A DNA stretch of 64,000 bases from Escherichia phage Lw1, in the sequence record KC801932; one strand, written 5' to 3'. The position numbers and the translations under genes are program-made. Shown here one piece after another: positions 39,139-59,172 of the stretch (position 1 is the stretch's first letter; each line of letters begins with the position of its first letter). The notes under the pieces are model-generated. The model saw only the letters and a list, made by a program, of their open reading frames with translations. It did not search any database and was not told the DNA's origin.

Positions 39139-39693
39139 ATGTTGTTCTCATTCTTCCCGCCTGTTGATTATAAAGGCACACCAACTACTGATATCTACCG
39201 CGATTATCGTTTTTACTTCAATCGCGTAATCAGGAATTATAAGCCCCGCACATATCAACTGACAGGATCATTAAGACCTGAACAATTAGCGGAAACGCTA
39301 TACGGAAACCAACAATACTACTGGGTTATCCTGATGCTCAATGATAATTACGATCCGTTCTATGGATGGATTACAGATCAGGAAACCGCTTATCAATGCG
39401 CTGTTCAGCGTTATTCGAAAGTAGGTGGTGAGCAAGTTCTTTACCATATGGACGGACAAAGCAACCGTTATTATAACCTGGTTGAAGATCCGACTAACCC
39501 CGGTCATTGGTATGACAAGGGTGATAAAGATATGCGTTATTTGCAGTATCAGGGAACTTTAGTCCCTGTAGATATTTATGAAGATGCCGTGTTGCAAAAT
39601 GAAGCACTTCGTACCATTAAAATTATCAATCCCTCTGATATTCAATCGTTTGTAAGCGATTATATCAAGGAAATGGAAAAGGCGAACACATGA
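39139..39693 (+). CDS. 53: baseplate wedge subunit gp53
   Basis: MLF.FF.P..Y...TDI.R.Y..YF.R, NDNYDP.YGWIT.QE.AYQ, YDKGDK, collinear with recalled T4 gp53. Confidence 0.85.
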   Translation: MLFSFFPPVDYKGTPTTDIYRDYRFYFNRVIRNYKPRTYQLTGSLRPEQLAETLYGNQQYYWVILMLNDNYDPFYGWITDQETAYQCAVQRYSKVGGEQVLYHMDGQSNRYYNLVEDPTNPGHWYDKGDKDMRYLQYQGTLVPVDIYEDAVLQNEALRTIKIINPSDIQSFVSDYIKEMEKANT

Positions 39694-41456
39694 GATACGG
39701 TGGAAATGCAAACTCCCCGTTTTTTGATGGGGTTGTTGAAGAAGTTGATGACCCGTTATTTCTGGGACGGGTTCGGGTTCGCGTATTTGGTGAACACCCA
39801 GCACAGAAACAGAAATCTGAAACTATCGGTATTCCTGTTGAGGAATTGCCGTGGATGGTTCCTATCCAGAACATCACCAGCGCTGCTGTATCAGGAGTTG
39901 GGTTCTCTCCGACTGGTATCGTAAGAGGTAGCTTTGTATTCGGCGTATGGCGCGATAAATGGCATCAGGACGGCGTTATACTGGGAACCTATGCAGGGCA
40001 GTATGTTGAGAAGCCCGACACTCAGAAAGGCTTCTGTGACCCGTTTGGTGAGTATCCCCGCTACGTTGGTAACGATGTCAACGTATTGGCTCGTGGTGGT
40101 GTAGAAGGTAGGACATCAAGTAGTGTTGTTATCCGTGATGCAAACAGTTCATTGGCAGTAAACCCAGACGATCGCCCACTGGACGAAATACCGGAAGATA
40201 ACCGACCGGACACTGGCGGTTTCACCATTGAAACAATGATCAAGCAGGATGAAGGTATTCGGTTGACGTGGTATTATGATGTTAAAGGTTATACAATCGG
40301 GATTGGACACTTTTTCTTAACCGCTCCACAAGGTACAGATCCGGCAGTTGTTAACGCAGCGTTATCTAAACAAATTGGTAGAACTGTTACTGGTGTTCCT
40401 GGATCAATCACAGCAGAAGAAGCGGGCGTTTTATTTCAGCAAGATTTAGCTAAAGTTCATAGAGATATTCAGAATAATAGCAAAGTTCGTGAAGTATATC
40501 ATGATCTTAACCGTCCGCGCCAGATGGCTATTGAAAACATGTGCTTTCAGATGGGTGTTGGTGGTGTAGCAAAATTTACAAATGCTCTGGCTGCTATGAA
40601 GAGTCAGGACTGGCAAACCGCCTACAACGAACTGAGAAACTCAACATGGGCTAACCAGACACCAGGACGTTCTTCACGCGTATCTAAAATCGTGCTGACC
40701 GGAAACCTTGAATCATATGGTGTTATGGTTCCAGATCCAGAAGGAAGAAGCCTAAGCGCTGCTTATAACGCTGTAGTTCTGCAAGCCAGTAACCCAGAAG
40801 ACCCTTTTGTTCCTGGTGATACCCGTGTAATGTTCGAGGAACCAAAATCTGCATACGCTGCTGAATATCCTTACAATATGGTGTTTGAATCTCGTTCGGG
40901 ACATATTCAAGAATTCGACGATACACCAGGATTTGAACGTTATAACCGCGTTCACCCGGCAGGGACATATGAAGAAATTCGTCCTGATGGAAGCCGTGTC
41001 GTAAAAATTATGGGTGATGATTATCAGATTGTTATGCAGGGCAGGAAACTGAACGTTAAAGGCAATTTGCAAGTGGTAGTCGAAGGTGATGCGTTCATTT
41101 ACAATATGGGTAACGTTCAACAGACTGTTGATGGAAACGTAACTGAGTTCGTGCGCGGTAACGTAAACCAGACTGTCGAGGGTGAATATGTGGGACGCGT
41201 AAAAGGTAACGCAGAATTAACCGTCGAAAAAGATGCTACTATAAACGTGGATCAGAATTTAATGGCTAACGTTAAACAGAATGCAACTGTTAACGTAACC
41301 GAAGATGCAACTGTTACCGCAAAAAATGCGATGATGGATATTGAACAAGACTTCGATTTAAACGCGAACAATATCACAATGGTTGCCCGACAAAATACAT
41401 TAATAGATTCCGGTTCTCTGACTAAGATAACTGGTGGAACAGTCCAGGTAGGTTAA
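39690..41456 (+). CDS. 5: baseplate central spike / tail lysozyme gp5
   Basis: N-terminal OB domain (LGRVRVRVFGEH), T4-lysozyme-type domain (GYTIGIGHF), C-terminal beta-helix VxGxxxxxVEG repeats. Confidence 0.9.
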   Translation: MRYGGNANSPFFDGVVEEVDDPLFLGRVRVRVFGEHPAQKQKSETIGIPVEELPWMVPIQNITSAAVSGVGFSPTGIVRGSFVFGVWRDKWHQDGVILGTYAGQYVEKPDTQKGFCDPFGEYPRYVGNDVNVLARGGVEGRTSSSVVIRDANSSLAVNPDDRPLDEIPEDNRPDTGGFTIETMIKQDEGIRLTWYYDVKGYTIGIGHFFLTAPQGTDPAVVNAALSKQIGRTVTGVPGSITAEEAGVLFQQDLAKVHRDIQNNSKVREVYHDLNRPRQMAIENMCFQMGVGGVAKFTNALAAMKSQDWQTAYNELRNSTWANQTPGRSSRVSKIVLTGNLESYGVMVPDPEGRSLSAAYNAVVLQASNPEDPFVPGDTRVMFEEPKSAYAAEYPYNMVFESRSGHIQEFDDTPGFERYNRVHPAGTYEEIRPDGSRVVKIMGDDYQIVMQGRKLNVKGNLQVVVEGDAFIYNMGNVQQTVDGNVTEFVRGNVNQTVEGEYVGRVKGNAELTVEKDATINVDQNLMANVKQNATVNVTEDATVTAKNAMMDIEQDFDLNANNITMVARQNTLIDSGSLTKITGGTVQVG

Positions 41457-41458
41457 TC

Positions 41459-43531
41459 ATGATCATGGATTATGAAACGATAATTGATGGAATTATGCAA
41501 AATTTTCAGCATCCTTGTGATGCTGAAATACCTGCTGGATCGTACAGACGTATTATCTGGCAGGGACATACAGAAGACTACCCCGCTGTTGGGGTAGAAT
41601 GGGATACTGAAATCATTCCGATCGGGACGCATCTTTACACGCAATCCCCGTTCGGACAGAAAAGCGATCCGCTTCCGGTAGTCAACTCCCCAGGAACCGA
41701 TCCAGGAACTGGGGAAGCAACCGGGATTCTGGTAGAGAAGATTGGTTATTATTTCACCACACAACAGGAAATTGACGATTATATCACTTCTATTGGTGCA
41801 ACGAAACTAACTGGTAACGATTGGTACGGCGCGGATCTGACAAAAGCAAACCTGTTTAAAAATCCGGGGGAACTCGCAATGTATAAAGTCGAGAACTCTG
41901 GTGGTTATCTGATGACTTCTGGACCTCGCTGTGATCCACGTATCAGACAGGCTTATAACGTCGATACAGGGGCGTTTACGAGCATTGATTACGATTGGAA
42001 TGGTAATCGTATTGCTTACATGAAACATGACGACACAGGGGCGCACAATTGCAAATACGTAGGGATGATGGTCAACACCAACGCAGATACGAGCATTCCT
42101 CCGGTTCCTCCGGCTATGCCGTCTGTGTATGGTGCGTTACCGAGCGAAATTTCAATGATGCGATCTGGTTTGGGTTGTGTTCCGGCGACCGTTGGGTTTG
42201 CCTACACAAACATCAGTGATGCGATGCTCGAAGCATGGAACGAAACCAGGAAATCATTCAAACTTGTATTTGACATGCTTTCTGGGATCACTAAATCGGG
42301 TTCTGGTGGTATTTCTACAATGTATGATGGTTTGTGTATCGCGATGGAAGAAATTGCAGCAGGTGCTCTTGCTTTATCCCAGCAAGCATGGCAAGCCGCA
42401 ATGAAAGTGTTTCGTGATGTTATTTCATCAGCATTGAACATTGTAGGTGGTGCGTGGGACATGATAAAAAGTTTTCTGCCTACGGTGACCATTATGGGTG
42501 TGTCGATAAACATATACGATCTGATTTTTGGTGATAACTCTGTTCAGACACTAAAAGACGCATTTCAGGCAATCATTGATTCTGGTGTACAAACATATGA
42601 AGCAATCATAAACGAAATATATGCCACTATAGGCAGTGTTTACAATTATGCGGTAGAATATGTCAAGGCTGGCGCTAGAGACCTCGTAGACGCGTGTAGT
42701 GCGTTATTTGATTGGTGTATTACTATGTTCCAGAATGGTTGTGTGGCACTGGTTGATTTATACGGAAGGATCATGCAGATCTGGTCAATGCCTCCGATGG
42801 TTCCAAACCCGTTATGGGCTGCTGTTTTGGCTATCAGAAACATCCTTATGCAGATCAAACCTCTTGATATAATTTTAAGCGGTAACTTTCCTGGTTTTAC
42901 TGCGATGGACTTGTACCAATGGGCGCAAGAAAAAGTCAAGGAATTTATTGATCAATCATACGAACAGATACGCGGATATTATGAACAGGCTAAAAATCTT
43001 TACAACATGCTAACATCGCAGACTCAGGAAAGGGATGCAATAAAACGTAAATTTGACCAGTATCTTAACTGGATGTGGGGTGCTGTTACTGATGCTGCTA
43101 CCGCTGCATATCAGGCCGCGTTGGACGCTGCAAACGAAGCAATCGAACAAACAAAGGCAATGATAGATGGTGTTAAAGCACAGATAGCCGCTCTACAGGA
43201 CGCGTTGAAAGACACGTACAGTCTCGCAATGGAAGAGTTAAAGAAACTGCCTATCATGCAGCAGATTAACGAATTCTTAGGCTACTGTGGTATTGCTTTC
43301 GATGACTTACTGAAAACGTATGATAACGCGGTTACGGGCGCAAAATCCCTGTATAAAAACTTTGTGGACAGTTCCCGATCGTTCAAGGATACCTGCAAGG
43401 TGATATACAACCAGATATGTACGCTGGCACTAAGTAAGGTGACTCAATACGTGAATAAACTGTTGTCTCTAATCGGACTGATGATCAATTTCGCATCAAT
43501 CAATATTTGCGTTCCGATGATTCAACTATAA
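41459..43531 (+). CDS. large hypothetical protein (690 aa) between genes 5 and 6
   Basis: ATG 3 nt after gene 5 stop; predominantly helical with hydrophobic stretches and hydrophobic C-terminus; no T4 counterpart of this size recalled at this locus. Confidence 0.6.
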   Translation: MIMDYETIIDGIMQNFQHPCDAEIPAGSYRRIIWQGHTEDYPAVGVEWDTEIIPIGTHLYTQSPFGQKSDPLPVVNSPGTDPGTGEATGILVEKIGYYFTTQQEIDDYITSIGATKLTGNDWYGADLTKANLFKNPGELAMYKVENSGGYLMTSGPRCDPRIRQAYNVDTGAFTSIDYDWNGNRIAYMKHDDTGAHNCKYVGMMVNTNADTSIPPVPPAMPSVYGALPSEISMMRSGLGCVPATVGFAYTNISDAMLEAWNETRKSFKLVFDMLSGITKSGSGGISTMYDGLCIAMEEIAAGALALSQQAWQAAMKVFRDVISSALNIVGGAWDMIKSFLPTVTIMGVSINIYDLIFGDNSVQTLKDAFQAIIDSGVQTYEAIINEIYATIGSVYNYAVEYVKAGARDLVDACSALFDWCITMFQNGCVALVDLYGRIMQIWSMPPMVPNPLWAAVLAIRNILMQIKPLDIILSGNFPGFTAMDLYQWAQEKVKEFIDQSYEQIRGYYEQAKNLYNMLTSQTQERDAIKRKFDQYLNWMWGAVTDAATAAYQAALDAANEAIEQTKAMIDGVKAQIAALQDALKDTYSLAMEELKKLPIMQQINEFLGYCGIAFDDLLKTYDNAVTGAKSLYKNFVDSSRSFKDTCKVIYNQICTLALSKVTQYVNKLLSLIGLMINFASINICVPMIQL

Positions 43532-43534
43532 ATA
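43527..43534 (+). promoter_or_regulatory. T4-type late promoter TATAAATA upstream of gene 6
   Basis: exact TATAAATA 20 nt upstream of the gene 6 ATG. Confidence 0.6.
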
Positions 43535-43554: not shown

Positions 43555-45468
43555 ATGGCTACCGTAAAGAAACAAATTAATCAGATCCCCGATATTTTCG
43601 TCGGGGCTACTTTTGATGAAATCAAATCAGATTTAATTAACTGGCTTCGTGGTCAGGAAGAATTTAAGGATTACGATTTCGCTGGCTCTCGTATGAACGT
43701 ACTGGTTGACCTGCTTTCGTATACTACACTGTACATTCAGCAAATGAGTAACACCGCACTATTCGAATCATTCATTCGAACTGCGGCGCTTCGTAGTTCT
43801 GTTGTACAAAAGGCTCAGGATCTGGGATATATGCCGGACTCTCGCACCGCTGCAAATACCTCGATTCTAATTACTGCAAAGAACCCGCTGAACCCTACGT
43901 CAATTCGTATTCCACGAGGGACGAAGTTTATCGGTACTGTAAAAGAAACAAACAGCTTCCCGTTTGTCGTATCCGATGACGTGGTGATCGTGCGTGACAA
44001 AGACAACAACTATGTTTCTATGTTAAACATTGTCCAGGGGCGTTTAGTTCGTACTGAGGTAATCTACGATGGTTCTACTATCCTGATTCGCGATCCGAAT
44101 ATAGACCGTAACCAGGTGCGTGTGTCTATCAACGGGGCGCAATGGGATGACTGGACAAACGAAAGTATCGTAAACGCAACGGGCGCAAGTACCGTGTTTT
44201 ATATGCGGGAAACCGTTGACGGACACACTGAGGTTTACTTTGGTGAAGGTGAAACCAGTCAACAGGTGGCAGGTGGTGCTCTTACCGCTGACTACATCGG
44301 GGGCTTGAAACCTGCTAACGGTTCTGTCGTTGTTATTGAATATATTTCAACCAATGGCGAAGAAGCAAACGGTGCGGAAAACTTTGTTTACGTGGATACG
44401 TTGACAAATATCAGCATTACAAGTATTGTTGAGAACCCGACCAACTCTCAGGACTACGTAGGTGCTGATGGTGGCGGTGAACCGGAAGACATTGAGCGTA
44501 TTCGTGAACTTGCTCCGATCATGCGTGAAACACAACGTCGTTGTGTTACTGCGTCGGATTATGAATCGTTCCTGTCTCACAGATTCGGTTCGGTGATCCA
44601 AGCTGTACAGTGCTTTACTGACAGTGAAAAACCTGGATATGCGTTTATCGCGGTTAAACCGAAATCAGGGTTGCGCTTAACCTCTGTGCAGAAAGAGGAT
44701 ATGCAAAACTATCTGGCGAAGTATAACCTTGCGACGATCACGCCGTCTATTCTCGACCCTAACTATCTGTATATTGTACAAAACATCAAAGTTACGTATG
44801 ATATCAGTAAATTGATTGAGTCAGAAGAATGGCTTCGTGGTCAGGTAATCAACGAAATCGACAAATACTATACTGATAACGTTGAAATTTTCAACAAATC
44901 ATTCAGTAAGTCCAAGATGTTGACCTATGTTGATAACGCGGACGTGTCGATCATCGGTTCTTCTGCAACGATTAACATGTTGCGTGAACTCGATAACTAT
45001 TACAGTGCTCCGATGTCTGGTATTCATTTCTTAAACCAGGTCGCATCACGATCCATTATATCGAACGGATTCAAGTATACAAATGCTGATGACGATTCAT
45101 ATGATGTGCGTTATGCGTCTACTGATATGGACACTACGACCGGACTTGCTAAAATCGTAATAGGGCCATTTAAAGATGGTGATATCTCAATCACTCCGTA
45201 TGCTGGGGATGATTTCGATAAATACCCTGGGGTGACGGACAGAACGAAATACTATGAGGTCGGTTATGTTGAACATTACAACGACTTCATTAGCTTCGAT
45301 CTGGGTGTTTTAAACGTCCCATCAGAACGCTTTAGCGCTGCTTATATCGAACTGACGGCTAAACCATTAGAGGAAACTATCTTTACCCGTGATGGTTCTC
45401 TGATTGTGTTTGAAAACGATCTGCGTCCTCAATATACCACGTTGACGATGAACCCGATCAGCCAATAA
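43555..45468 (+). CDS. 6: baseplate wedge subunit gp6
   Basis: IP.IFVG.TF.EIK..LI.WL.GQ.EF.DYDF.GSR.NVL.DLL.Y.TLYIQQ recalled from T4 gp6. Confidence 0.85.
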   Translation: MATVKKQINQIPDIFVGATFDEIKSDLINWLRGQEEFKDYDFAGSRMNVLVDLLSYTTLYIQQMSNTALFESFIRTAALRSSVVQKAQDLGYMPDSRTAANTSILITAKNPLNPTSIRIPRGTKFIGTVKETNSFPFVVSDDVVIVRDKDNNYVSMLNIVQGRLVRTEVIYDGSTILIRDPNIDRNQVRVSINGAQWDDWTNESIVNATGASTVFYMRETVDGHTEVYFGEGETSQQVAGGALTADYIGGLKPANGSVVVIEYISTNGEEANGAENFVYVDTLTNISITSIVENPTNSQDYVGADGGGEPEDIERIRELAPIMRETQRRCVTASDYESFLSHRFGSVIQAVQCFTDSEKPGYAFIAVKPKSGLRLTSVQKEDMQNYLAKYNLATITPSILDPNYLYIVQNIKVTYDISKLIESEEWLRGQVINEIDKYYTDNVEIFNKSFSKSKMLTYVDNADVSIIGSSATINMLRELDNYYSAPMSGIHFLNQVASRSIISNGFKYTNADDDSYDVRYASTDMDTTTGLAKIVIGPFKDGDISITPYAGDDFDKYPGVTDRTKYYEVGYVEHYNDFISFDLGVLNVPSERFSAAYIELTAKPLEETIFTRDGSLIVFENDLRPQYTTLTMNPISQ

Positions 45469-49633: not shown

Positions 49634-50497
49634 ATGGCATATCAAACAGGCAAAAAATTAATTGACGTGGGGCAGATCGGCAACCCGTCAACTGGTGACC
49701 CGCTGTATGACGGCGGTGTAAAACTTAACGAAATCATCACCAACGTGTATAACGCGTTTGGTGATGTGCGTTTACTGACTGCAAACGATGGTGTGGGTAC
49801 AATGCTGCTCCACGCTACCGGATATTTTCAGAAGTTACCACGTACCTATTATTCAGGCAATCCGATCGAACTGGGTTCCTTGCATGATATGGATACGTCA
49901 ACAGGACCGATCACGGTTGTTCTTCCTTCTGGCAAAGCGGGTGAAGGATGTTATTTCATAAATAGTAACGGTAGTATTTCTGTTGACCGTCCTCTGGTGT
50001 TCCGTCCTCAAGTTGGCGATAATATCAAAGGTGTCCAGGATCAGCTTTACATCACCTCTCCATACACCCAGATTAAATTGTGGTGTGTTAAGAAAGAGGG
50101 TTCTGTAACCACATGGGATTATTCAGTCGAATCAATGTTCGGCTCTAAAACAATGCCAGTGGATACTACCAAACTAATTCTGAAAGCATCACCGACCGCA
50201 ATTCCTTTATTCGGTTACACTGAATTCAGCGGGGCGAAATTGCTCGTATATGCTGAAAGTATGACAGGAACAGTCAATAAAATGGCTGAAATCCTTCTCG
50301 CGGTAGACCGTATTGCTAAAGGCGTGTATTCAACAGAATATGCTGTTCTGAAAAATAGCGATGACGATATGTACACCCTTACTTTCACTGTCGGCGCTGG
50401 TGATGTGGTATATGCAAACGTACAATCCAAAGTCGAAGATCGCATTAAGTTTTCGATTAAAGCGATTGACACCATTAAATCAGGGATCGCAGCATGA
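49634..50497 (+). CDS. 9: baseplate wedge / long tail fibre attachment protein gp9
   Basis: KKLID.G.IGN.STGD...DGG.K.N, YNAFGD, FINSNGSISV, SPY...L.C, W.YS.ESMFG recalled from T4 gp9. Confidence 0.85.
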   Translation: MAYQTGKKLIDVGQIGNPSTGDPLYDGGVKLNEIITNVYNAFGDVRLLTANDGVGTMLLHATGYFQKLPRTYYSGNPIELGSLHDMDTSTGPITVVLPSGKAGEGCYFINSNGSISVDRPLVFRPQVGDNIKGVQDQLYITSPYTQIKLWCVKKEGSVTTWDYSVESMFGSKTMPVDTTKLILKASPTAIPLFGYTEFSGAKLLVYAESMTGTVNKMAEILLAVDRIAKGVYSTEYAVLKNSDDDMYTLTFTVGAGDVVYANVQSKVEDRIKFSIKAIDTIKSGIAA

Positions 50498-52311
50498 AAC
50501 AAGAAATTATTATAGGTAACGTGGTTGATGACGGCGCTGGCGATTACTTACGCCGTGGTGGTCAAAAAACAAACGCGAACTTTACCGAATTATATGAAAA
50601 GCTGGGTGACGGGGAAATCCCTCACCCAGCGGGTGCGTGGAAAACGCATTCCGCTCCTACATTGAACCCTATTTTTGGTGATTCATGGGCGCTGAATACC
50701 AGTAACAACCGTATTACTGTAAACCTCCCTAAAGGGGGCGTAAGCGATTATAACAAGGTTATTCGTCTGCGTGATGTTTGGAGTAAATGGGCGGTTAACA
50801 ACGTGCGTATCGTTCCGGCAACGGGAGACACCATCAAAGGTTCACCAACTTACAAAGAACTGTACAAAGATTTCATGGATGTTGAACTGGTTTATTGTGC
50901 TCCTGGGCGTTGGGAATACGTCGAGAACAAACAGGTTGACAAAATAACAACTTCGGATCTGGCTACCGTAGCGAAAGAAACCTATATCGCAACTCAGGGA
51001 CAGACAGACTTCCCGAATGTGTTCGGTCCTGGCAACATGTACAACGTTCGTGCTCTCGAAGTCTACTATCGTGGTAACTTGCTGTACATCGACGATAAGA
51101 ACGGCTTTAATGAAGCAAACAGTGATTACGGTTCGCCTGGGGCAACTGCGGGGCAACTCGTAGAACTGGATGGAACCAACATACGCCTTAAACGTCCCTG
51201 TAACGCTGGTGACACGCTTCAATTTGTCACCTATATGGATGGTATAGCAACATGGCGTTCGACGTATGAAGCGCATACAATGCGCGTATACAACACTGGA
51301 GACACTGAACTTGTGAGCGTACCTGGTGAAATCTGGGTTGGCGATCTGGCTAACAAGAAAGAATTCACCACTGCTGAATTTGGTATCAGTTCCCGTGTGT
51401 TGATTAACCCGAATTCATTCGAACTGCTGCTGAACGGTCGTCAGCTTGTAAAAGCAGGTGATGCGGATCTTCCTACGTTTGTTTGTGAAGGTGCGGAAGG
51501 TTATGATGAAGATAGCTGTTTGGCTAACTCCGGTTTATGGGTTCCGTCTGGACAGGATTACAGTCTAATCTTTGTTAACTCTATTGTGACTGGGATTAAG
51601 TTTCATCAGGCACTGGAAACCCGCGATGTGGTAACAATCCGTTGGTTCAATAACGATATCGGAACCGTAATGGAATGGGACGGCGTAGGCGGTATTAAAG
51701 AGCATACGGATAAACTGTATCTGAATAACGAAGACGAATTGACTTTGGTTAATCAGATTGAATATACAGACTACAACAACCCGTCACAAAAAACAATGCG
51801 TAAGGTTGCAGATCCTTTCGTTGGTCGTCTGTTGGATTTGCAAGCGTTTTTCGATGTGATTCACCCTATTGGGACAATTTACGAAAACGCACACAACGAC
51901 GCAAACCCAGGCGATTATATGGGATTTGGTATCTGGACACGATATGCAGAAGGGATGTTTATTGCTGGTTGGACTACCGATGCAGCAGATAGCGATTTTG
52001 GGCTGAACAATAACGATCTGGATGGTTCCGGTCAACCTACACACACATCAGGTGGTACTGGTGGTGAACGCGGCTACGAAATCAAACCGATCAACGTTCC
52101 ACAAATCGAATCTACCGATAAAGTTCTGATTAAGGACGATAACGGGATCATTATCATTGGTGGTTGTCAGGTTGACCCAGATGCAACAGGACCAGGATAC
52201 ACTAAATACCGTGAGGATGTATTGAAAGTAAATCAGGGTAATACTACTCCTGATAAGCTGAAAACGCTCCCTCCGTATATTACTGCACATCGCTGGATAA
52301 GGGTAGCATAA
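50494..52311 (+). CDS. 10: baseplate wedge subunit gp10
   Basis: 605 aa (T4 about 602), ATGA coupling, synteny. Confidence 0.7.
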   Translation: MKQEIIIGNVVDDGAGDYLRRGGQKTNANFTELYEKLGDGEIPHPAGAWKTHSAPTLNPIFGDSWALNTSNNRITVNLPKGGVSDYNKVIRLRDVWSKWAVNNVRIVPATGDTIKGSPTYKELYKDFMDVELVYCAPGRWEYVENKQVDKITTSDLATVAKETYIATQGQTDFPNVFGPGNMYNVRALEVYYRGNLLYIDDKNGFNEANSDYGSPGATAGQLVELDGTNIRLKRPCNAGDTLQFVTYMDGIATWRSTYEAHTMRVYNTGDTELVSVPGEIWVGDLANKKEFTTAEFGISSRVLINPNSFELLLNGRQLVKAGDADLPTFVCEGAEGYDEDSCLANSGLWVPSGQDYSLIFVNSIVTGIKFHQALETRDVVTIRWFNNDIGTVMEWDGVGGIKEHTDKLYLNNEDELTLVNQIEYTDYNNPSQKTMRKVADPFVGRLLDLQAFFDVIHPIGTIYENAHNDANPGDYMGFGIWTRYAEGMFIAGWTTDAADSDFGLNNNDLDGSGQPTHTSGGTGGERGYEIKPINVPQIESTDKVLIKDDNGIIIIGGCQVDPDATGPGYTKYREDVLKVNQGNTTPDKLKTLPPYITAHRWIRVA

Positions 52312-52973
52312 TGACACAATTTATTTCAAAGACAAGGGAGGGGGCGAAAGTCCCTTCTCGTGAAGCAGACTTTTTGCAATATGAAATGGGTACGAAAGAA
52401 CCCCTTATTGGTGGTAAACGTACCATCGGCGGTGCAAACGTTGATCAGCTTCGCAAAGGGATAGACTATCCCAACGTACAATCAGCAATCGATGACCTGT
52501 ATTCTCTGACTCAACAGATCCCGATTAACGGGGTTATCATGATGACAGAAGACAGTCCACCGACCGCTGTTCAGCAGGTAGAAACAATCACGTTTGATGG
52601 AACTGTACAAAATCCAGATCCAGACCAAACGAAAGCAACCGTTCATGTTTATGGCTTTCCGTTTGTATTCGATAACACAACGAACGCCTCTACGGTATGC
52701 GAAACAGTATTCAACAAGTTTACTGAATTTGTCAACGACGAAAAATATTTCGATCTGGTTACGCGTAAAGGATTGAACGGGGAAATTCTGGAAGTTCGTT
52801 TTATTGATGCGGTTCCACATCCGGTAACTAACGCAACAGAAAACGGGATCTCTATGGTTGGTGTAATCGACGTACAGGCGCGTTCTGGTTACGGTACGTG
52901 GTCGAAACTGGGTGAGATTGATCTTGCTGTAACTCCACCTGTTCCGATTTATTATTTCAAACGTATTGCGTAA
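52311..52973 (+). CDS. 11: baseplate wedge subunit gp11 (short tail fibre connector)
   Basis: 220 aa (T4 219), synteny. Confidence 0.7.
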   Translation: MTQFISKTREGAKVPSREADFLQYEMGTKEPLIGGKRTIGGANVDQLRKGIDYPNVQSAIDDLYSLTQQIPINGVIMMTEDSPPTAVQQVETITFDGTVQNPDPDQTKATVHVYGFPFVFDNTTNASTVCETVFNKFTEFVNDEKYFDLVTRKGLNGEILEVRFIDAVPHPVTNATENGISMVGVIDVQARSGYGTWSKLGEIDLAVTPPVPIYYFKRIA

Positions 52974-52982
52974 GGATAACCA

Positions 52983-54374
52983 ATGAGTAACAACACAATT
53001 AACCACGTAAGCGATGCGTCAGTTTACGTGACTTTCGATCCGGCTGGTACGCAATGGCCTTCGACGTTTACCAACGTACAGCAAGCCCTAGCCTCTATAG
53101 GCTCATGGGCGCGTGAAGATGTGGGTTTGCCTAACGCTGCCCCTGGTGTGCGTGGTATCGCTGCTATTGCTACCGAGGCGATGATTGACGCAGGTACTGA
53201 CACCGAAACGATCGTTACTCCAGCGCTGTTGGCATATCGTTTACAGAATCCTCATGCGTCACAAACTGTATGGGGTTATACCCGTTATGCGACCGATGCA
53301 GAAGCAACCACAATCACTAACGATTTGGTTTCTGTAACTCCGCGTTCTGTTGATGTTATTTTCAACACCAGACAAGCAACAGAAACTGTATGGGGTTCTG
53401 CGAAACTGTCAACTACAGCACAAGCAACATCAGGTACTGATGACACAACCGCAATGACTCCATTGAAGGTTAAACAAGCGATCTCCGCTCTGGTTCCGGT
53501 TCAATCTAACGCAACGGAAAGTTCGTTCGGTTTGGTTCAGTTGGCTACGGTTGCAGAAGTCCGCGCAGGTACTATCCGCGATGGATTTGCAATTTCACCA
53601 TATACGTTTATTCGTCTGAATGCAACAGAATCCGATCTAGGTATTATTCGAATAGCTTCACAGGGTGAAGTCAACACAGGCGCTGATGATACAAAAGCTG
53701 TTACCCCGCTGAAACTGGCTAACTTGAAAGGTTCTGGTAGCGCGTTTGGTTTGGTTAAATTATCAACAGATGTAAACACAGGGCTGGCGAACACAGCGCT
53801 TTCTGCTGGTGCTAACGTGGTTCCGAGCAACCGTGATAGTGCAATTACTGGTGGTGCTCTGTATCAGGGTTCAGTTACTGGTGCTAATAAATACCAAACA
53901 CATAGCGACGTTGAAGCAAATATTCCTATTGGGTGTATGATGCTCGCGGCATTCAACTCAGATTACGGAAACCTGTTTATCGCAAACGGTCGCGCGATGA
54001 ATAGAAACGCAAACCCAGAACTATTTGCACGTATTGGCTACGCATATGGCGGTAGTGGTGATATTTTCAACCTCCCAGATATGCGCGGGGTTGCTGCTCG
54101 TGGTTTCGATGCGGGACGTGGGTTAGATCCTGGTCGCGGGTTTGGTACATATCAGGCCGATGCGTTTGCGTATCACGAACATAACCTACAGATGATTTTG
54201 CTGAACGGCGGTAATATTCCATCAAGTCAGGCTGTTTATGAACTGAAATGGGCCAAGAAAAATGACCAACGAATCTATGATTTAGATCCGAACTATAGCA
54301 AAGCTAAGGGTGTTGGTGCTAACGAAACGCGAATGAAAAACGTTGCGGTCAACTATGTAATTCGAGTACGATAA
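52983..54374 (+). CDS. 12: short tail fibre protein gp12
   Basis: MSNNT..HVS....YV.FDP; repeated TPLK/ATES.G..QLATVA.VR.GT; C-terminal LPDMRG...NETR.KN..VNYVIRV recalled from T4 gp12. Confidence 0.85.
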   Translation: MSNNTINHVSDASVYVTFDPAGTQWPSTFTNVQQALASIGSWAREDVGLPNAAPGVRGIAAIATEAMIDAGTDTETIVTPALLAYRLQNPHASQTVWGYTRYATDAEATTITNDLVSVTPRSVDVIFNTRQATETVWGSAKLSTTAQATSGTDDTTAMTPLKVKQAISALVPVQSNATESSFGLVQLATVAEVRAGTIRDGFAISPYTFIRLNATESDLGIIRIASQGEVNTGADDTKAVTPLKLANLKGSGSAFGLVKLSTDVNTGLANTALSAGANVVPSNRDSAITGGALYQGSVTGANKYQTHSDVEANIPIGCMMLAAFNSDYGNLFIANGRAMNRNANPELFARIGYAYGGSGDIFNLPDMRGVAARGFDAGRGLDPGRGFGTYQADAFAYHEHNLQMILLNGGNIPSSQAVYELKWAKKNDQRIYDLDPNYSKAKGVGANETRMKNVAVNYVIRVR

Positions 54375-54386
54375 AGGGGTTAATCC

Positions 54387-56675
54387 ATGATTTCAAAACT
54401 TAACCCGTTACCAAAGATCCCGTTTGTTGATGGTGTCCCTTCGGACACCACACAAACCCCGATCAGTTGGATTCTTAACGGTGAGACTCTCGACGGGGCC
54501 AAAACAAAGGTCACTAGCGAGGGTTCTTTAAACAGATGCGGCGTTCTGGTTCAAAAGAACGCGGTGCAATTGGAAACAAACACCATTACGCAAACGGCAA
54601 AAATCAACGAAGTTATCGATCAAGTTAACCTCATTAGTGAAAACCTCGCGGCTATTTCTGATGAAAGCGTGATCGAAAAACTGGATCAGGTCGTTGCTGA
54701 TGTGGAAGTGTTAAAAGTCGATATGACTGCGGTTCAAGGTTCTACCGCAAGCAATACCCTGAAAATTCAGGATCTCGATAAAGATATCGGGACATGGGAT
54801 GCTACAACAGATCCAAAACACCGAACCATTCGCAAAGATATTATTTTTCTGAAAGGGGAAATGGGCGCATATCCTGGATTTAATCAGGACGGTGACGTAG
54901 ATCCTACTTCAACTGGCTCTGGAATGAAATACAAAATCATGACGAACGCGCAAGCGATTTCGATTCATGAAGGGCGTATTACCAGACTGGAAGACGATTG
55001 GGCCAACTCAGATGTAGGCCATTTAACTGATGAAGTTACCGACTTGCGTAATGAAATGGGGCCGAAACATTTAGCAACGTTTGAATCGGTGTACGTTCGT
55101 CTGAATAAAATTGGTACGGATATCACTGGGATTAATACCGAACTGACAGAAATCAACCAATATATCGGTCGTACTGGTACAGGTGGTTCTGGAAGTATTT
55201 CTGCTCGAATGACTACGGCAGAAACGAATATTGTTACTCTGCAAACGCAGATGAATGATTCTTCCGTTGGTGTTCTTCCTCGCGTAATTTCTCTTGAAAA
55301 CCAAGTTGGGAATTCGCAGGTTCCGGGTAGTATTCGTTATGATATCAGTAATATCAAACGTGACATTAGCGACCTGAATATGGTTGTTGGTGAATCAAGC
55401 GATGAAGGGCTACGGGGCGAAATGGCTCAGGTTATGTCCGATATCGGTACAGATTCACAACCTACAAGCATTAAAGGCCGTCTGCTTAACGTAGAGAATA
55501 CGCAGCGCGACGATCACCAGCGTTTGATTGATGTCGAATCTATTGTTGGTAACACCTCAAGCGGACTTGTTGCGGCTAACATCGCAATGGGTAAAGCGGT
55601 TTATGGTGATGCAACCAGTTCAGATCCGTTCCTCAAAGACGGTATTCAGAAAACGACTCGCGATAGCAAAACTGCAATTGGTGTCAACACTACAGGTTCT
55701 GAAACTGGAATCTATAAGTTGATTTCCGATCTGACTGCTCGTGTTGCTGCTCTGGAAAGTGGTTCTGGTAGTGATCTCGAACAGCGTGTTTCCGATCTTG
55801 AAGTCAATAAAGCATCGCATCAGGACGTTACAAACGCACTGGTTCCGTATATTACTGAAACTGAGGCCGATATCAAGTACGAACCGAAGAAGATTCCGCT
55901 TGCGTTCACTCAAAACCTCGTTGGTCGAAATGATTATATCGAAGGTGATGACATTTCTCTGATGGTTACTGTATCTGGTGGTAAAGTCCCTTATGCGTAC
56001 CAGTGGAAGAAAGACAACGCGAACGTAGGTACGAACGCATCAAGTTTGATGATCCAGACCATCACATCGGCTAACGCTGGCGTGTATAAGGTTGAAGTAA
56101 CTGACGCAGATAACACGGTTATCACTTCTAACGAATTGACAATTGCTGTTTATCCGGTTCCTCAGTTCGATACTAACCTGGCTGATAAATCAGTGGTTGA
56201 CGGTGATCCTCTGACTCTGGAAGTTGTGTATAGCGGCGGTAAACCTTCGTACACTTACGAGTGGTTCAAAGATAACTCTGTTATCTCTGGGGCAACATCA
56301 GCAACATTTACCAAATCTGCGGTTACAAGTGCCGATGCTGGTGAATACTATGTTTCTGTGACTGACTCGATGAACAACCAAAATGATTCAGTGAAAGCAA
56401 ATGTGACGGTAACACCACGTCCTGCACTGGCATTCACTACGGATCTGAGTTCTACTAAATCATATAGCACAGGTGCTGATATGGACCTTGCTGTTGTCGT
56501 AACTGGTGGTAAAACACCATATACGTACAAATGGTTTAAAGACACTGCGGAAATTTCCGGTCAGACAGGCGCAAGCCTTACCACTGTAGCAGAAGATGGA
56601 GTGTATAAAGTCGAAGTGACTGATGCACTAACGACTAAAATCACATCAACTGAATGCACGGTAACTGTTGCATAA
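54387..56675 (+). CDS. wac: fibritin (wac, whisker) with three C-terminal Ig-like domains
   Basis: N-terminus LP.IPFVDG......ISWI.NGE..GA.T...SEGS.NR like recalled T4 Wac; central coiled-coil heptads; three about 85-aa repeats (GGK.PY.Y.WFKD....G.....T..A..GVYKVEVTD) replace the foldon. Confidence 0.75.
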   Translation: MISKLNPLPKIPFVDGVPSDTTQTPISWILNGETLDGAKTKVTSEGSLNRCGVLVQKNAVQLETNTITQTAKINEVIDQVNLISENLAAISDESVIEKLDQVVADVEVLKVDMTAVQGSTASNTLKIQDLDKDIGTWDATTDPKHRTIRKDIIFLKGEMGAYPGFNQDGDVDPTSTGSGMKYKIMTNAQAISIHEGRITRLEDDWANSDVGHLTDEVTDLRNEMGPKHLATFESVYVRLNKIGTDITGINTELTEINQYIGRTGTGGSGSISARMTTAETNIVTLQTQMNDSSVGVLPRVISLENQVGNSQVPGSIRYDISNIKRDISDLNMVVGESSDEGLRGEMAQVMSDIGTDSQPTSIKGRLLNVENTQRDDHQRLIDVESIVGNTSSGLVAANIAMGKAVYGDATSSDPFLKDGIQKTTRDSKTAIGVNTTGSETGIYKLISDLTARVAALESGSGSDLEQRVSDLEVNKASHQDVTNALVPYITETEADIKYEPKKIPLAFTQNLVGRNDYIEGDDISLMVTVSGGKVPYAYQWKKDNANVGTNASSLMIQTITSANAGVYKVEVTDADNTVITSNELTIAVYPVPQFDTNLADKSVVDGDPLTLEVVYSGGKPSYTYEWFKDNSVISGATSATFTKSAVTSADAGEYYVSVTDSMNNQNDSVKANVTVTPRPALAFTTDLSSTKSYSTGADMDLAVVVTGGKTPYTYKWFKDTAEISGQTGASLTTVAEDGVYKVEVTDALTTKITSTECTVTVA

Positions 56676-56682
56676 TTTAACA

Positions 56683-56703
56683 AGGGGCGCAAGCCCCTTT
56701 TGA
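56683..56703 (+). terminator. hairpin aaggggcgcaagccccttttg
   Basis: GC stem + T-run immediately after wac. Confidence 0.6.
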
Positions 56704-56710
56704 GGATCAT

Positions 56711-57634
56711 ATGATTACGAACAACCCTGAACAATTGAAGGATGAAATTCTTCGTCGTCTGGGCGCACCAATCATCAAAATCGAAATCACACAAGACCAG
56801 ATTTACGATTGCATTCAACGCGCACTGGATCTGTATGCGGAATATCATTACAACGGAACAAACAAAAGCTATATTATTCTGACACTGGGCGAAGATAACC
56901 CACGCAACGTATTTGATTTGAGCAAAGAACACATTTTCGCGATCACAAAAGTATTGCGTACAAATATCGGTTCCCTGGTTTCTATGGATGGTACAGCGGT
57001 TTATCCGTGGTTTACCGATTTCCTGATGGGGCTTACTGGTGGTTCATTGGGCGGTCGCTGTTCATCCAGTGTATACGGTATGAACGCATACGGTGCGGAT
57101 CTGGGGTATTTTACACAGATGATGTCCTATCAGCGCTCGATGCAAGATTTGCTGGCTCCGTTGCCTGATTACTGGTACAACGATGACACTGGTCAATTTT
57201 GCGCATGGGGTAAAGTCAACTACGGTGATATCATTGTTATTGAAGCGATGGTCCGTTCTTTCGTTGACGTTCCTAGTGCCGTAGGAAGCGTTGCAGGATA
57301 CGCTACAGCGGGTTCTAACGCAGTAGAAGACCAATCTATAGCCGACATCTACGATAACCCTTATAACGCGGTTGTGGGCGGTGTACGTGCGGGGCAGGGA
57401 ACAACTGTTACTGGTGGAACCTCTGCATATAACAACCGTTGGGTAAAAGACTACTCGACCGCGCTGGTAAAAGAAATCAACGGACAAATTCTGGCTAAGT
57501 TCCAGGGTATGCAATTGCCTGGTGGTGTTGCTCCTGATGGAACGCGACTGATCCAGGAAGCAGAAACCAAATTACAAGGATTGCGCGACGAACTGATTTC
57601 TATGTCTGACGCAGTTCCTATTATTATGGTGTAG
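56711..57634 (+). CDS. 13: neck protein gp13
   Basis: 307 aa (T4 309), synteny. Confidence 0.7.
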   Translation: MITNNPEQLKDEILRRLGAPIIKIEITQDQIYDCIQRALDLYAEYHYNGTNKSYIILTLGEDNPRNVFDLSKEHIFAITKVLRTNIGSLVSMDGTAVYPWFTDFLMGLTGGSLGGRCSSSVYGMNAYGADLGYFTQMMSYQRSMQDLLAPLPDYWYNDDTGQFCAWGKVNYGDIIVIEAMVRSFVDVPSAVGSVAGYATAGSNAVEDQSIADIYDNPYNAVVGGVRAGQGTTVTGGTSAYNNRWVKDYSTALVKEINGQILAKFQGMQLPGGVAPDGTRLIQEAETKLQGLRDELISMSDAVPIIMV

Positions 57635-57642
57635 GGGGAATA

Positions 57643-58389
57643 ATGCAAAACTGGGATGAAAGTTTATTCGCTCAGTTGTCAACGGGAGAGGGAGTTGATC
57701 GCAACTTAAAGGATCAAGTTACTAACCCGTATGTAAACTGGTACAAATATAACCCGACACAACAGCTACACGATTCACTGACAGCAGAATCCATACAGAT
57801 GAAATCACCTGATATGTATTATGTCAGACGTGAATTTGTGAATATAGATAAAATACTGGGTGAAGACCGAGAATCTAAATTTACGAAATCGTGGAAGATT
57901 GCGGCATATATTGAATCATACGCCAACTACGAAGGACAGCGGGACTTCTTTAGCAAATTTGGGTTGAGTTCTAACGACGAAATGACGCTGGTACTGAATC
58001 CGCGTTTATTTGCACATCAAACTGATGGTGGTATTCCTGTGTTGGGGGATTTGATTTATTTCCCTATGGACAACAGCCTGTTTGAAATTACATGGGTGGA
58101 AGCAGATCCGTTCTATCAGTTCGGTGATCGTCCTCAACGTAAAATCAACCTGGCTAAATTCATCTACACGGGCGAAGAATTGGCTCCTGAATTGCAGCGA
58201 AACGAGGGAATCCATATTGAACCTGATGCAGAACTGGATCTTGAACCTATTCGAAATCTCGACGGGCTGGCAGATATCAACATTGAACAGTACGAAGAAG
58301 ACAAAGAATTTGAAAAAGAAAGTGACGAGTTCATCGATTCTTTTGATGTTGTCAACGGACGCGGATCTCCATTCGCAACGTTGCCCTAA
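57643..58389 (+). CDS. 14: neck protein gp14
   Basis: 248 aa (T4 256), synteny. Confidence 0.7.
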   Translation: MQNWDESLFAQLSTGEGVDRNLKDQVTNPYVNWYKYNPTQQLHDSLTAESIQMKSPDMYYVRREFVNIDKILGEDRESKFTKSWKIAAYIESYANYEGQRDFFSKFGLSSNDEMTLVLNPRLFAHQTDGGIPVLGDLIYFPMDNSLFEITWVEADPFYQFGDRPQRKINLAKFIYTGEELAPELQRNEGIHIEPDAELDLEPIRNLDGLADINIEQYEEDKEFEKESDEFIDSFDVVNGRGSPFATLP

Positions 58390-58398
58390 ATAGTTTAT

Positions 58399-59172
58399 AT
58401 GGGTATAGGCGAAAGTCTGTACCCTCTTCGAAGAGGATTTTATGATATGGTTGCAAAAATCTCTATAGAACAAAGAGAACATCAATTAAAAGAACGTTGT
58501 GCGGAATTAGAACTATCTTTTGATGGATGGGTAGACCAATCAGCGATCACAAAATATTCAAAGTTTTATGTTGTTTGCAGTAAAGGACATAGAACAGAAA
58601 AACAGATCAAACCATTTGTCAACAAAAGTCGTCCAAACGGATGTTATTTGTGTTCCCCTAAGATGAAAATATCAAAGGAAAACAGAATCGAGGAAATCAA
58701 AACTCTTGCAGATTCAATTGGATATACATTCGTAGATTTCGTTGGGGTGTATAAAGATGCACACACAAAAATATCAATGGTTTGCGATAAAGGCCATAAT
58801 TGGGATGTAAGTATAGTTGCTTTTCTCAATCAAGGTCATCGCTGTAAAAAATGCGCAACGTCTGGGTTCAATCCGAACAAACCAGCATACGTATACGTAC
58901 AATCACTATCTGGAAAATTTCTGAAATTTGGGATAACCAACAGAACACCAAAGAAAAGAATGTGTGCGCAATCAAATAAATCCGTTTATAAACACGAACT
59001 GGTTTATCAAAAATTATTCGATAAAGGTATTGATGCAATGAGTATTGAACAGAAGATCAAACAATCTCTTGTTTGTGGCGTAGTCGATAAATCAGATATG
59101 ATGGATGGATATACAGAAACAACAGATATATCCAATTACGATAAACTGTTGAATATTATAGAAGGAGTATAA
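58399..59172 (+). CDS. T5orf172/GIY-YIG-like putative homing endonuclease inserted between genes 14 and 15
   Basis: two C-x-KGH...C-x2-C zinc-finger-like modules followed by AYVYVQSLSGKFLKFGITNRTPKKR (GIY-YIG-like); start may be the internal MVAKIS. Confidence 0.5.
   Translation: MGIGESLYPLRRGFYDMVAKISIEQREHQLKERCAELELSFDGWVDQSAITKYSKFYVVCSKGHRTEKQIKPFVNKSRPNGCYLCSPKMKISKENRIEEIKTLADSIGYTFVDFVGVYKDAHTKISMVCDKGHNWDVSIVAFLNQGHRCKKCATSGFNPNKPAYVYVQSLSGKFLKFGITNRTPKKRMCAQSNKSVYKHELVYQKLFDKGIDAMSIEQKIKQSLVCGVVDKSDMMDGYTETTDISNYDKLLNIIEGV

Follow-up and report, generated by a model that had tools for sequence, protein, structure and literature searches.

An RB43-type fibritin of Escherichia phage Lw1 with three C-terminal immunoglobulin-like modules

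The wac gene of Escherichia phage Lw1 (sequence record KC801932) was analyzed within a window of 64,000 nucleotides, the whole stretch of DNA considered here, where it lies between the genes for the short tail fibre protein gp12 and the neck protein gp13 (Table 1). Its product, Wac, was matched to the PHROG profile phrog_1056 ('fibritin neck whisker') with E=1.2e-180, and comprises an N-terminal neck-binding domain, a segmented coiled-coil rod, a junction and three immunoglobulin (Ig)-like modules, an architecture found likewise in the fibritin of phage RB43.

Table 1. Coordinates of wac, of the segments of its product and of the neighbouring genes in the Lw1 window (aa, amino acids; HMM, hidden Markov model; ORF, open reading frame).
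Feature	Position	Strand	Residues	Details
wac, RB43-type fibritin (neck collar/whisker)	54387..56675	+		intact ORF, 762 aa + stop
N-terminal neck-binding domain	54387..54566	+	1-60	T4 Wac likeness
Segmented coiled-coil rod	54567..55757	+	61-457	colinear with T4 fibritin
Junction	55758..55892	+	458-502	extra short helices and putative tandem beta-layer motif NKAS...PYITETEADIKYEPKK
Ig-like module 1 (Ig1), cassette type A	55893..56156	+	503-590	repeat HMM 151 bits
Ig-like module 2 (Ig2), cassette type B	56157..56417	+	591-677	repeat HMM 143 bits
Ig-like module 3 (Ig3), cassette type C	56421..56672	+	679-762	repeat HMM 135 bits
gp10 gene	50494..52311			Pfam and/or PHROG profiles
gp11 gene	52311..52973			Pfam and/or PHROG profiles
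gp12 short tail fibre gene, upstream of wac	52983..54374	+		phrog_910 E=1.3e-164, Pfam Collar
gp13 neck protein gene, downstream of wac	56711..57634	+		phrog_211 head-tail adaptor Ad2
gp14 neck protein gene	57643..58389	+		Pfam T4_neck-protein E=3.9e-87

A preliminary description of the locus had proposed that the protein begins like T4 Wac, and the alignment bears this out: residues 7-65 were aligned to residues 5-62 of T4 Wac with 29 identities over 58 positions and a score of 124, while the best of 500 shuffles reached 46. The N-terminal fibritin fragments in the PDB (1ox3/2ibl) aligned to residues 9-66 (E=3e-8), and most columns of the domain are invariant among 24 diverse members of the family. 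The similarity extends through the rod, as residues 9-457 were found by phmmer to be colinear with residues 7-455 of T4 fibritin (2bsg/3j2o, E=1.5e-47), and the Pfam family Fibritin_C matched the full protein with 78 bits against a cut-off of 21. Lw1 Wac and T4 fibritin (PDB 1AA0, 2BSG, 3J2O) share the N-terminal domain, the rod up to residue 457 (455 in T4) and the location between gp12 and gp13. In a full-length AlphaFold2 (AF2) model, around 17 helical segments joined by short loops were seen from residue 50 to residue 497. When each helix was placed in its best register, the a/d positions held 74 hydrophobic residues, whereas shuffled sequences gave 51.4+-2.3 (z=9.7). This test within the AF2 helices was used because a Fourier test for 3.5-residue periodicity in 28-residue windows, with 2 windows above the 95% shuffle level, was uninformative for a segmented rod. 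The coiled-coil heptads that had been described for the middle of the protein are real, and they are segmented as in T4.

The remainder of the protein is made up of the three tandem repeats previously noticed, with the pattern GGK.PY.Y.W(F/K)KD...G(V/E)Y.V.VTD visible in all of them. The modules are pairwise 38-52% identical, with local-alignment z-scores of 19-29 compared to shuffles. Their proposed Ig-like beta-sandwich nature was borne out by several independent comparisons. The Pfam families Ig_3 (73.2 bits, cut-off 30), I-set (47.4, cut-off 23.7) and Ig_2 (50.7, cut-off 27) all scored above their thresholds, the strongest stretch being residues 592-671 in module 2; of the families suggested beforehand, the modules are thus of the I-set/Ig_3 (Hoc-like) type and not Big_2. 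The Hoc-like PHROGs 2973/4069/3945 matched the C-terminal part, with phrog_3945 on residues 697-760, and RB49 Hoc (3SHS) was found by sequence with E=2e-7. An AF2 model of residues 455-762 had a mean predicted local distance difference test (pLDDT) score of 90 and showed three beta-sandwiches (block pLDDT 92-98). When searched with Foldseek, the array matched titin I67-I69 (3.5e-17), RB49 Hoc (3shs; 1.1e-15) and NCAM with probability 1.00, and in the viral structure library BFVD it matched phage decoration, tail and Ig-domain proteins. Each module contains a strand-C tryptophan (YQW/YEW/YKW) and a tyrosine-corner motif, (N/D/E)(A/D)G(V/E)Y.V.V, and has valine at the positions of the classical Ig-domain cysteines. 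Cysteine-free I-set modules of the same class occur on the virion surface in T4/RB49 Hoc (3SHS) and in T5 pb10-type decoration proteins (5LXK), but these are monomeric and attached to the capsid via a separate capsid-binding domain, and do not form the tip of a trimeric neck fibre. An Ig HMM run over the 64-kb window gave no match outside wac. At the DNA level, the only repeat between the modules was a single 19-nt match at 74%, probably due to chance. Judged from this lack of DNA-level repeats, the modules are old, diverged cassettes and the triplication is not recent.

Whether the foldon is lost had to be tested with care, because on Lw1 Wac the Pfam Fibritin_C match covered the whole model (residues 373-489, profile positions 1-93), and on T4 the same model reaches residue 482, where the foldon ends. 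When the protein was divided, residues 372-457 scored 77.1 bits (profile 1-64) and residues 372-489 scored 85.3 bits; the extension over 458-489 adds just ~8 bits, and residues 458-508 alone gave no Pfam match. A foldon-only HMM, built from the T4, one Mosigvirus and both SP18 motifs, recognized T4 with 2.4e-18 and found nothing at E<=100 in Lw1 Wac or in the six frames of 54000-57000. The alignment to a T4-type C-terminal HMM ends at residue 457 of Lw1 Wac, as does the phmmer alignment with T4 fibritin, and residues 458-502 contain no tryptophan, while the T4 foldon has one in its core. Two candidates for a foldon remnant were considered, a stretch of Lw1 Wac (PYITETEADIKY) that MAFFT set beneath 13 residues of T4 fibritin, and a tblastn alignment to Mosigvirus fibritins that reached residue 502; both were ruled out by the HMM and Pfam tests. 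By these profile comparisons the foldon hairpin is absent from Lw1 Wac, in agreement with the preliminary description. T4 fibritin ends in a 27-residue foldon beta-hairpin, whereas Lw1 Wac ends in a 45-residue junction followed by the three Ig modules. Only the hairpin is demonstrably gone, and the likeness that appears to survive is the position of one beta-layer triplet (YIT/YIP).

The 45 residues between rod and Ig1 (SGSGSDLEQRVSDLEVNKASHQDVTNALVPYITETEADIKYEPKK) mean that the Ig array does not directly abut the T4-homologous rod. Seven of them (K475, A476, Y488, T490, A494, D495 and K501) vary little or not at all in the same 24 diverse family members, and the conservation holds even in members with differing Ig modules. 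The junctions of distant relatives read SKANVSDVYTRTQADNKF, LQSKANVSDVYTRTQADNKF or ISTKANNTDVYSKVESDARY and fit LxxKADKxxVYTKxE, the consensus described for tandem beta-layers in trimeric fibres such as the prophage hyaluronidase 2C3F (Hartmann et al. 2016, PMC4786415). The same study includes residues 450-465 of T4 fibritin, with 'YIP' as the beta-layer, and our MAFFT alignment placed the junction 'YIT' on this 'YIP', which opens the T4 foldon. In the published tandem module the layers are 3 residues apart (PMC4786415), whereas the putative layers of Lw1 Wac are 10 apart (VNKAS-(10)-YITETEAD). A strict regular expression for the tandem motif found 47 of 121 family members, a number set aside as evidence because in Slopekvirus sequences the first K-A-x layer is missing in the form that the expression requires. 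An apparent short internal duplication (RVAALES-GSGSD-LEQRVSDLE) was observed at 55740-55830 (residues ~452-482), and the single-Ig relatives P0038 and P0042 have ~15 residues fewer at the duplication site (...RVAFLETNKAS...).

The closest described counterpart is RB43 Wac (AAP04365.1 / YP_239189.1), which likewise has 762 aa, the A-B-C order of Ig modules, the junction and the gene neighbourhood, at 92% identity. The 8% amino acid divergence from it is concentrated in Ig1 (81% identity) and the junction (84%), and compared to the RB43 group the rod is 93%, Ig2 95% and Ig3 98% identical. The divergence of Ig1, the least conserved segment, suggests a faster evolution or a recombinant origin of this module. 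Three Ig-like domains in the RB43 fibritin, as well as one in that of KP15, are attributed to Letarov et al. (2005, J Bacteriol 187:1055) in the account by Letarov and Krisch (2013, PMC3797505), and the wac sequence of RB43 (AY266305) has been publicly available since that work. Letarov and Krisch describe distant fibritins as keeping the N-terminal domain and shaft while carrying alien C-terminal domains, and propose that Ig-bearing fibritins might serve as accessory adhesins by drawing the virion near to the host. Because both the RB43 Ig domains and the adhesin proposal are reported there, the architecture and the adhesin idea are already known, and the preliminary description rediscovers what had been published on RB43 Wac. 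A literature search combining neck whiskers with Ig-like domains returned no match. The value of the present analysis is in the confirmation by profiles, AF2 and Foldseek, and in details useful for the engineering and typing of RB43-like phages; modest additions to the published description are the occurrence of one to five modules in shuffled orders, the beta-layer-like junction and the divergent Ig1.

When a large protein collection was searched with Lw1 Wac, 289 homologues were retrieved at E<=1e-10, and their modules were counted by an HMM of the Lw1 Wac repeats and clustered at 50% identity. The homologues fell into classes with one (571-587 aa), two (663-679 aa), three (759-770 aa), four (851-853 aa) and five (941 aa) Ig modules. 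The modules, of about 11 sequence types, were arranged as A-B-C (Lw1, RB43), A-B-C-D, A-B-D-C, A-E-C and A-E-C-D, and also as A-B, C-D, C, F-G-H and I-J-C-H-C. Mosaic relatives include P0002, P0006, P0023, P0030, P0037, P0038 and P0041. The portions of the literature on Ig-bearing fibritins available to us mention only one module (KP15) and three (RB43). The KP15/Slopekvirus fibritin (583 aa) belongs to the same family and has the junction motif (LYIKEADADLRYESKN) and an Ig-like C-terminus, but differs in having one Ig module of another cassette type, with ~51% identity to Lw1 Wac. Outside the family, each module is ~45% identical to the single Ig domain of T5-like decoration proteins, about as similar as its sister modules are. 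A further match was 9OCC, named by its depositors as a siphophage 'putative neck whiskers protein gp24', in which residues 115-237 of the chain were aligned to residues 633-759 of Lw1 Wac (E=2.6e-9); no fibritin N-terminal or rod homology was detected in this chain of 238 aa. One relative, P0050 (493 aa, on a 31.6-kb contig, with 4 member sequences), ends in DYYTKVESDAKFQPKAV right after the junction and has no Ig module. The sequence represents a natural fibritin with zero Ig modules or else a gene call that was cut short, and it bears on whether the junction alone can clamp a trimer.

The best overall explanation, to which we assign a probability of about 0.85 as a whole, is that wac encodes an RB43-type fibritin organised and acting as set out below; the identity and architecture of the protein we regard as close to certain. 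In such a fibre the N-terminal ~50-60 residues would anchor the protein to the gp13/gp14 neck, and residues ~50-457 would form a trimeric, loop-interrupted coiled-coil shaft as in T4. By analogy with T4 biology, the trimers would build the collar and whiskers through the N-terminal domain (PMC3797505). Beta-layer elements in the junction (residues 458-502) probably cap the coiled coil and would hold the chains in register, with three Ig arms emerging beyond them. Each chain ends in three I-set Ig-like beta-sandwiches where T4 has the foldon hairpin. According to PMC3797505, only the T4 and JS98 fibritins fold via the small foldon, other fibritins including RB43 need an expanded C-terminal domain for folding and trimerisation, and the trimer state of RB43 Wac has been reported biochemically. 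The C-terminal part of Lw1 Wac would by the same token supply the start of folding and trimerisation that the foldon gives in T4, and within it the beta-layer-like junction appears to be the likeliest trimer clamp. Once exposed, the Ig modules may engage in weak multivalent binding to lipopolysaccharide, capsule and mucin-like glycans and/or to the long tail fibres of the phage itself, which would help adsorption or fibre positioning.

Because of the variable copy number, the shuffling of cassettes and the sharing of modules with Hoc/pb10-type surface proteins, we favour accessory adhesion as the chief function of the Ig array, at best with even odds. Two linked ideas reach further than what has been published. 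In the first, a tandem beta-layer 'neck' formed by residues 475-502 may have taken over from the hairpin as the C-terminal trimer clamp, while retaining the beta-layer that opens the T4 foldon. In the second, the Ig tail may be a cassette-shuffled array whose modules come from a pool in common with decoration and tail proteins of the Hoc/pb10 type. As a pair these ideas are tentative and somewhat doubtful; if they hold, the whiskers would act as an accessory adhesin that diversifies rapidly. Phages of the RB43-like and Slopekvirus groups are therapy candidates against Klebsiella, Enterobacter and Cronobacter, so the ligand of the Ig modules is of some practical interest.

Several points weigh against this account. 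The role of the array is one that we infer, Ig domains are normally monomeric and would not obviously nucleate a trimer, and the junction has a pLDDT of only 46-69 in the AF2 monomer model, from which trimer geometry does not follow. In addition, the C-terminal moiety of T4 fibritin touches the long tail fibres close to the knee, and it also helps the fibres to attach and serves as a sensor of the environment (PMC3797505), and the Ig modules of Lw1 may likewise bind the phage's own fibres. The strongest alternative builds on that last observation: the array would mainly bind the own long tail fibres, in place of the knee contact made by the foldon region in T4, serving fibre assembly and the retracted 'up' conformation and not host adhesion. 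The rod has kept its length, being colinear with that of T4 up to residue 457, and the C-terminus would thus sit about as high on the tail as in T4, which agrees with this proposal. It is nevertheless unlikely, as one to five copies in shuffled order among close relatives are hard to square with a geometry-dependent protein contact, and unrelated phages carry the same Ig modules on their head decoration and tail proteins.

Less probable still is that the modules are chiefly a folding or stability nucleus which sets the register of the coiled coil and has no ligand. The need of the fibritins other than T4 and JS98 for an expanded C-terminal domain, described above, would fit such a nucleus, and so would the 35-nt interval between wac and gp13, in which no chaperone ORF is present. 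A single module is however enough in KP15-type proteins, P0050 apparently does without any, folding needs leave arrays of up to five modules unexplained, and the conserved junction motif would more plausibly serve as the trimer clamp. Adhesion, binding of the own fibres and a part in folding are not mutually exclusive. The notion that the C-terminal repeats are coiled coil or disordered low-complexity sequence and not Ig-like has practically no chance of being correct and found no support, being refuted by the Pfam Ig families above their gathering thresholds, the all-beta sandwiches of the AF2 model (pLDDT >90) and the Ig arrays returned by Foldseek with probability 1.00.

The gene order gp10-gp11-gp12-wac-gp13-gp14 is identical in T4 and RB43. 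Compared to RB43, RB16, the Citrobacter phages Miller and IME-CF2 and other Pseudotevenvirus members, wac has 87% identity in DNA and 92% in protein, and the surrounding 24 kb is 90.5% identical in nucleotides to RB16 and 88% to RB43. On these identity levels the phage is a distinct species-level relative within a well-known genus, Pseudotevenvirus. No T4 late-promoter consensus (TATAAATA) was found directly upstream of wac (around 54300-54386). The nearest on the + strand is at 43527-43534, just before gp6, and the 6 occurrences in the window are not above chance; wac probably shares a transcript with the baseplate genes upstream of it.

Two other ORFs of the window were noted. Between gp5 (39690-41456) and gp6 (43555-45468) lies a 690-aa ORF (41459-43531, + strand) that matches phrog_5296, of unknown function, with E=0; weak tape-measure-like coiled-coil matches were seen, with no Pfam domain above threshold. 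At this position T4 presumably has small ORFs only (5.1, 5.3, 5.4). A 257-aa ORF at 58399-59172 (+ strand), between gp14 and gp15, matches phrog_681 'endonuclease' (E=1e-62) and contains two stretches of Pfam CapR homology, and the same slot in RB43 holds a different protein, a 205-aa mobE homing endonuclease. RB16 may share the 257-aa insert, since it aligns over 100% of positions 40000-64000, compared to 97% for RB43 and Miller. The product of the 257-aa ORF is probably a free-standing homing endonuclease, its gene having been exchanged at a site of recurrent insertion.

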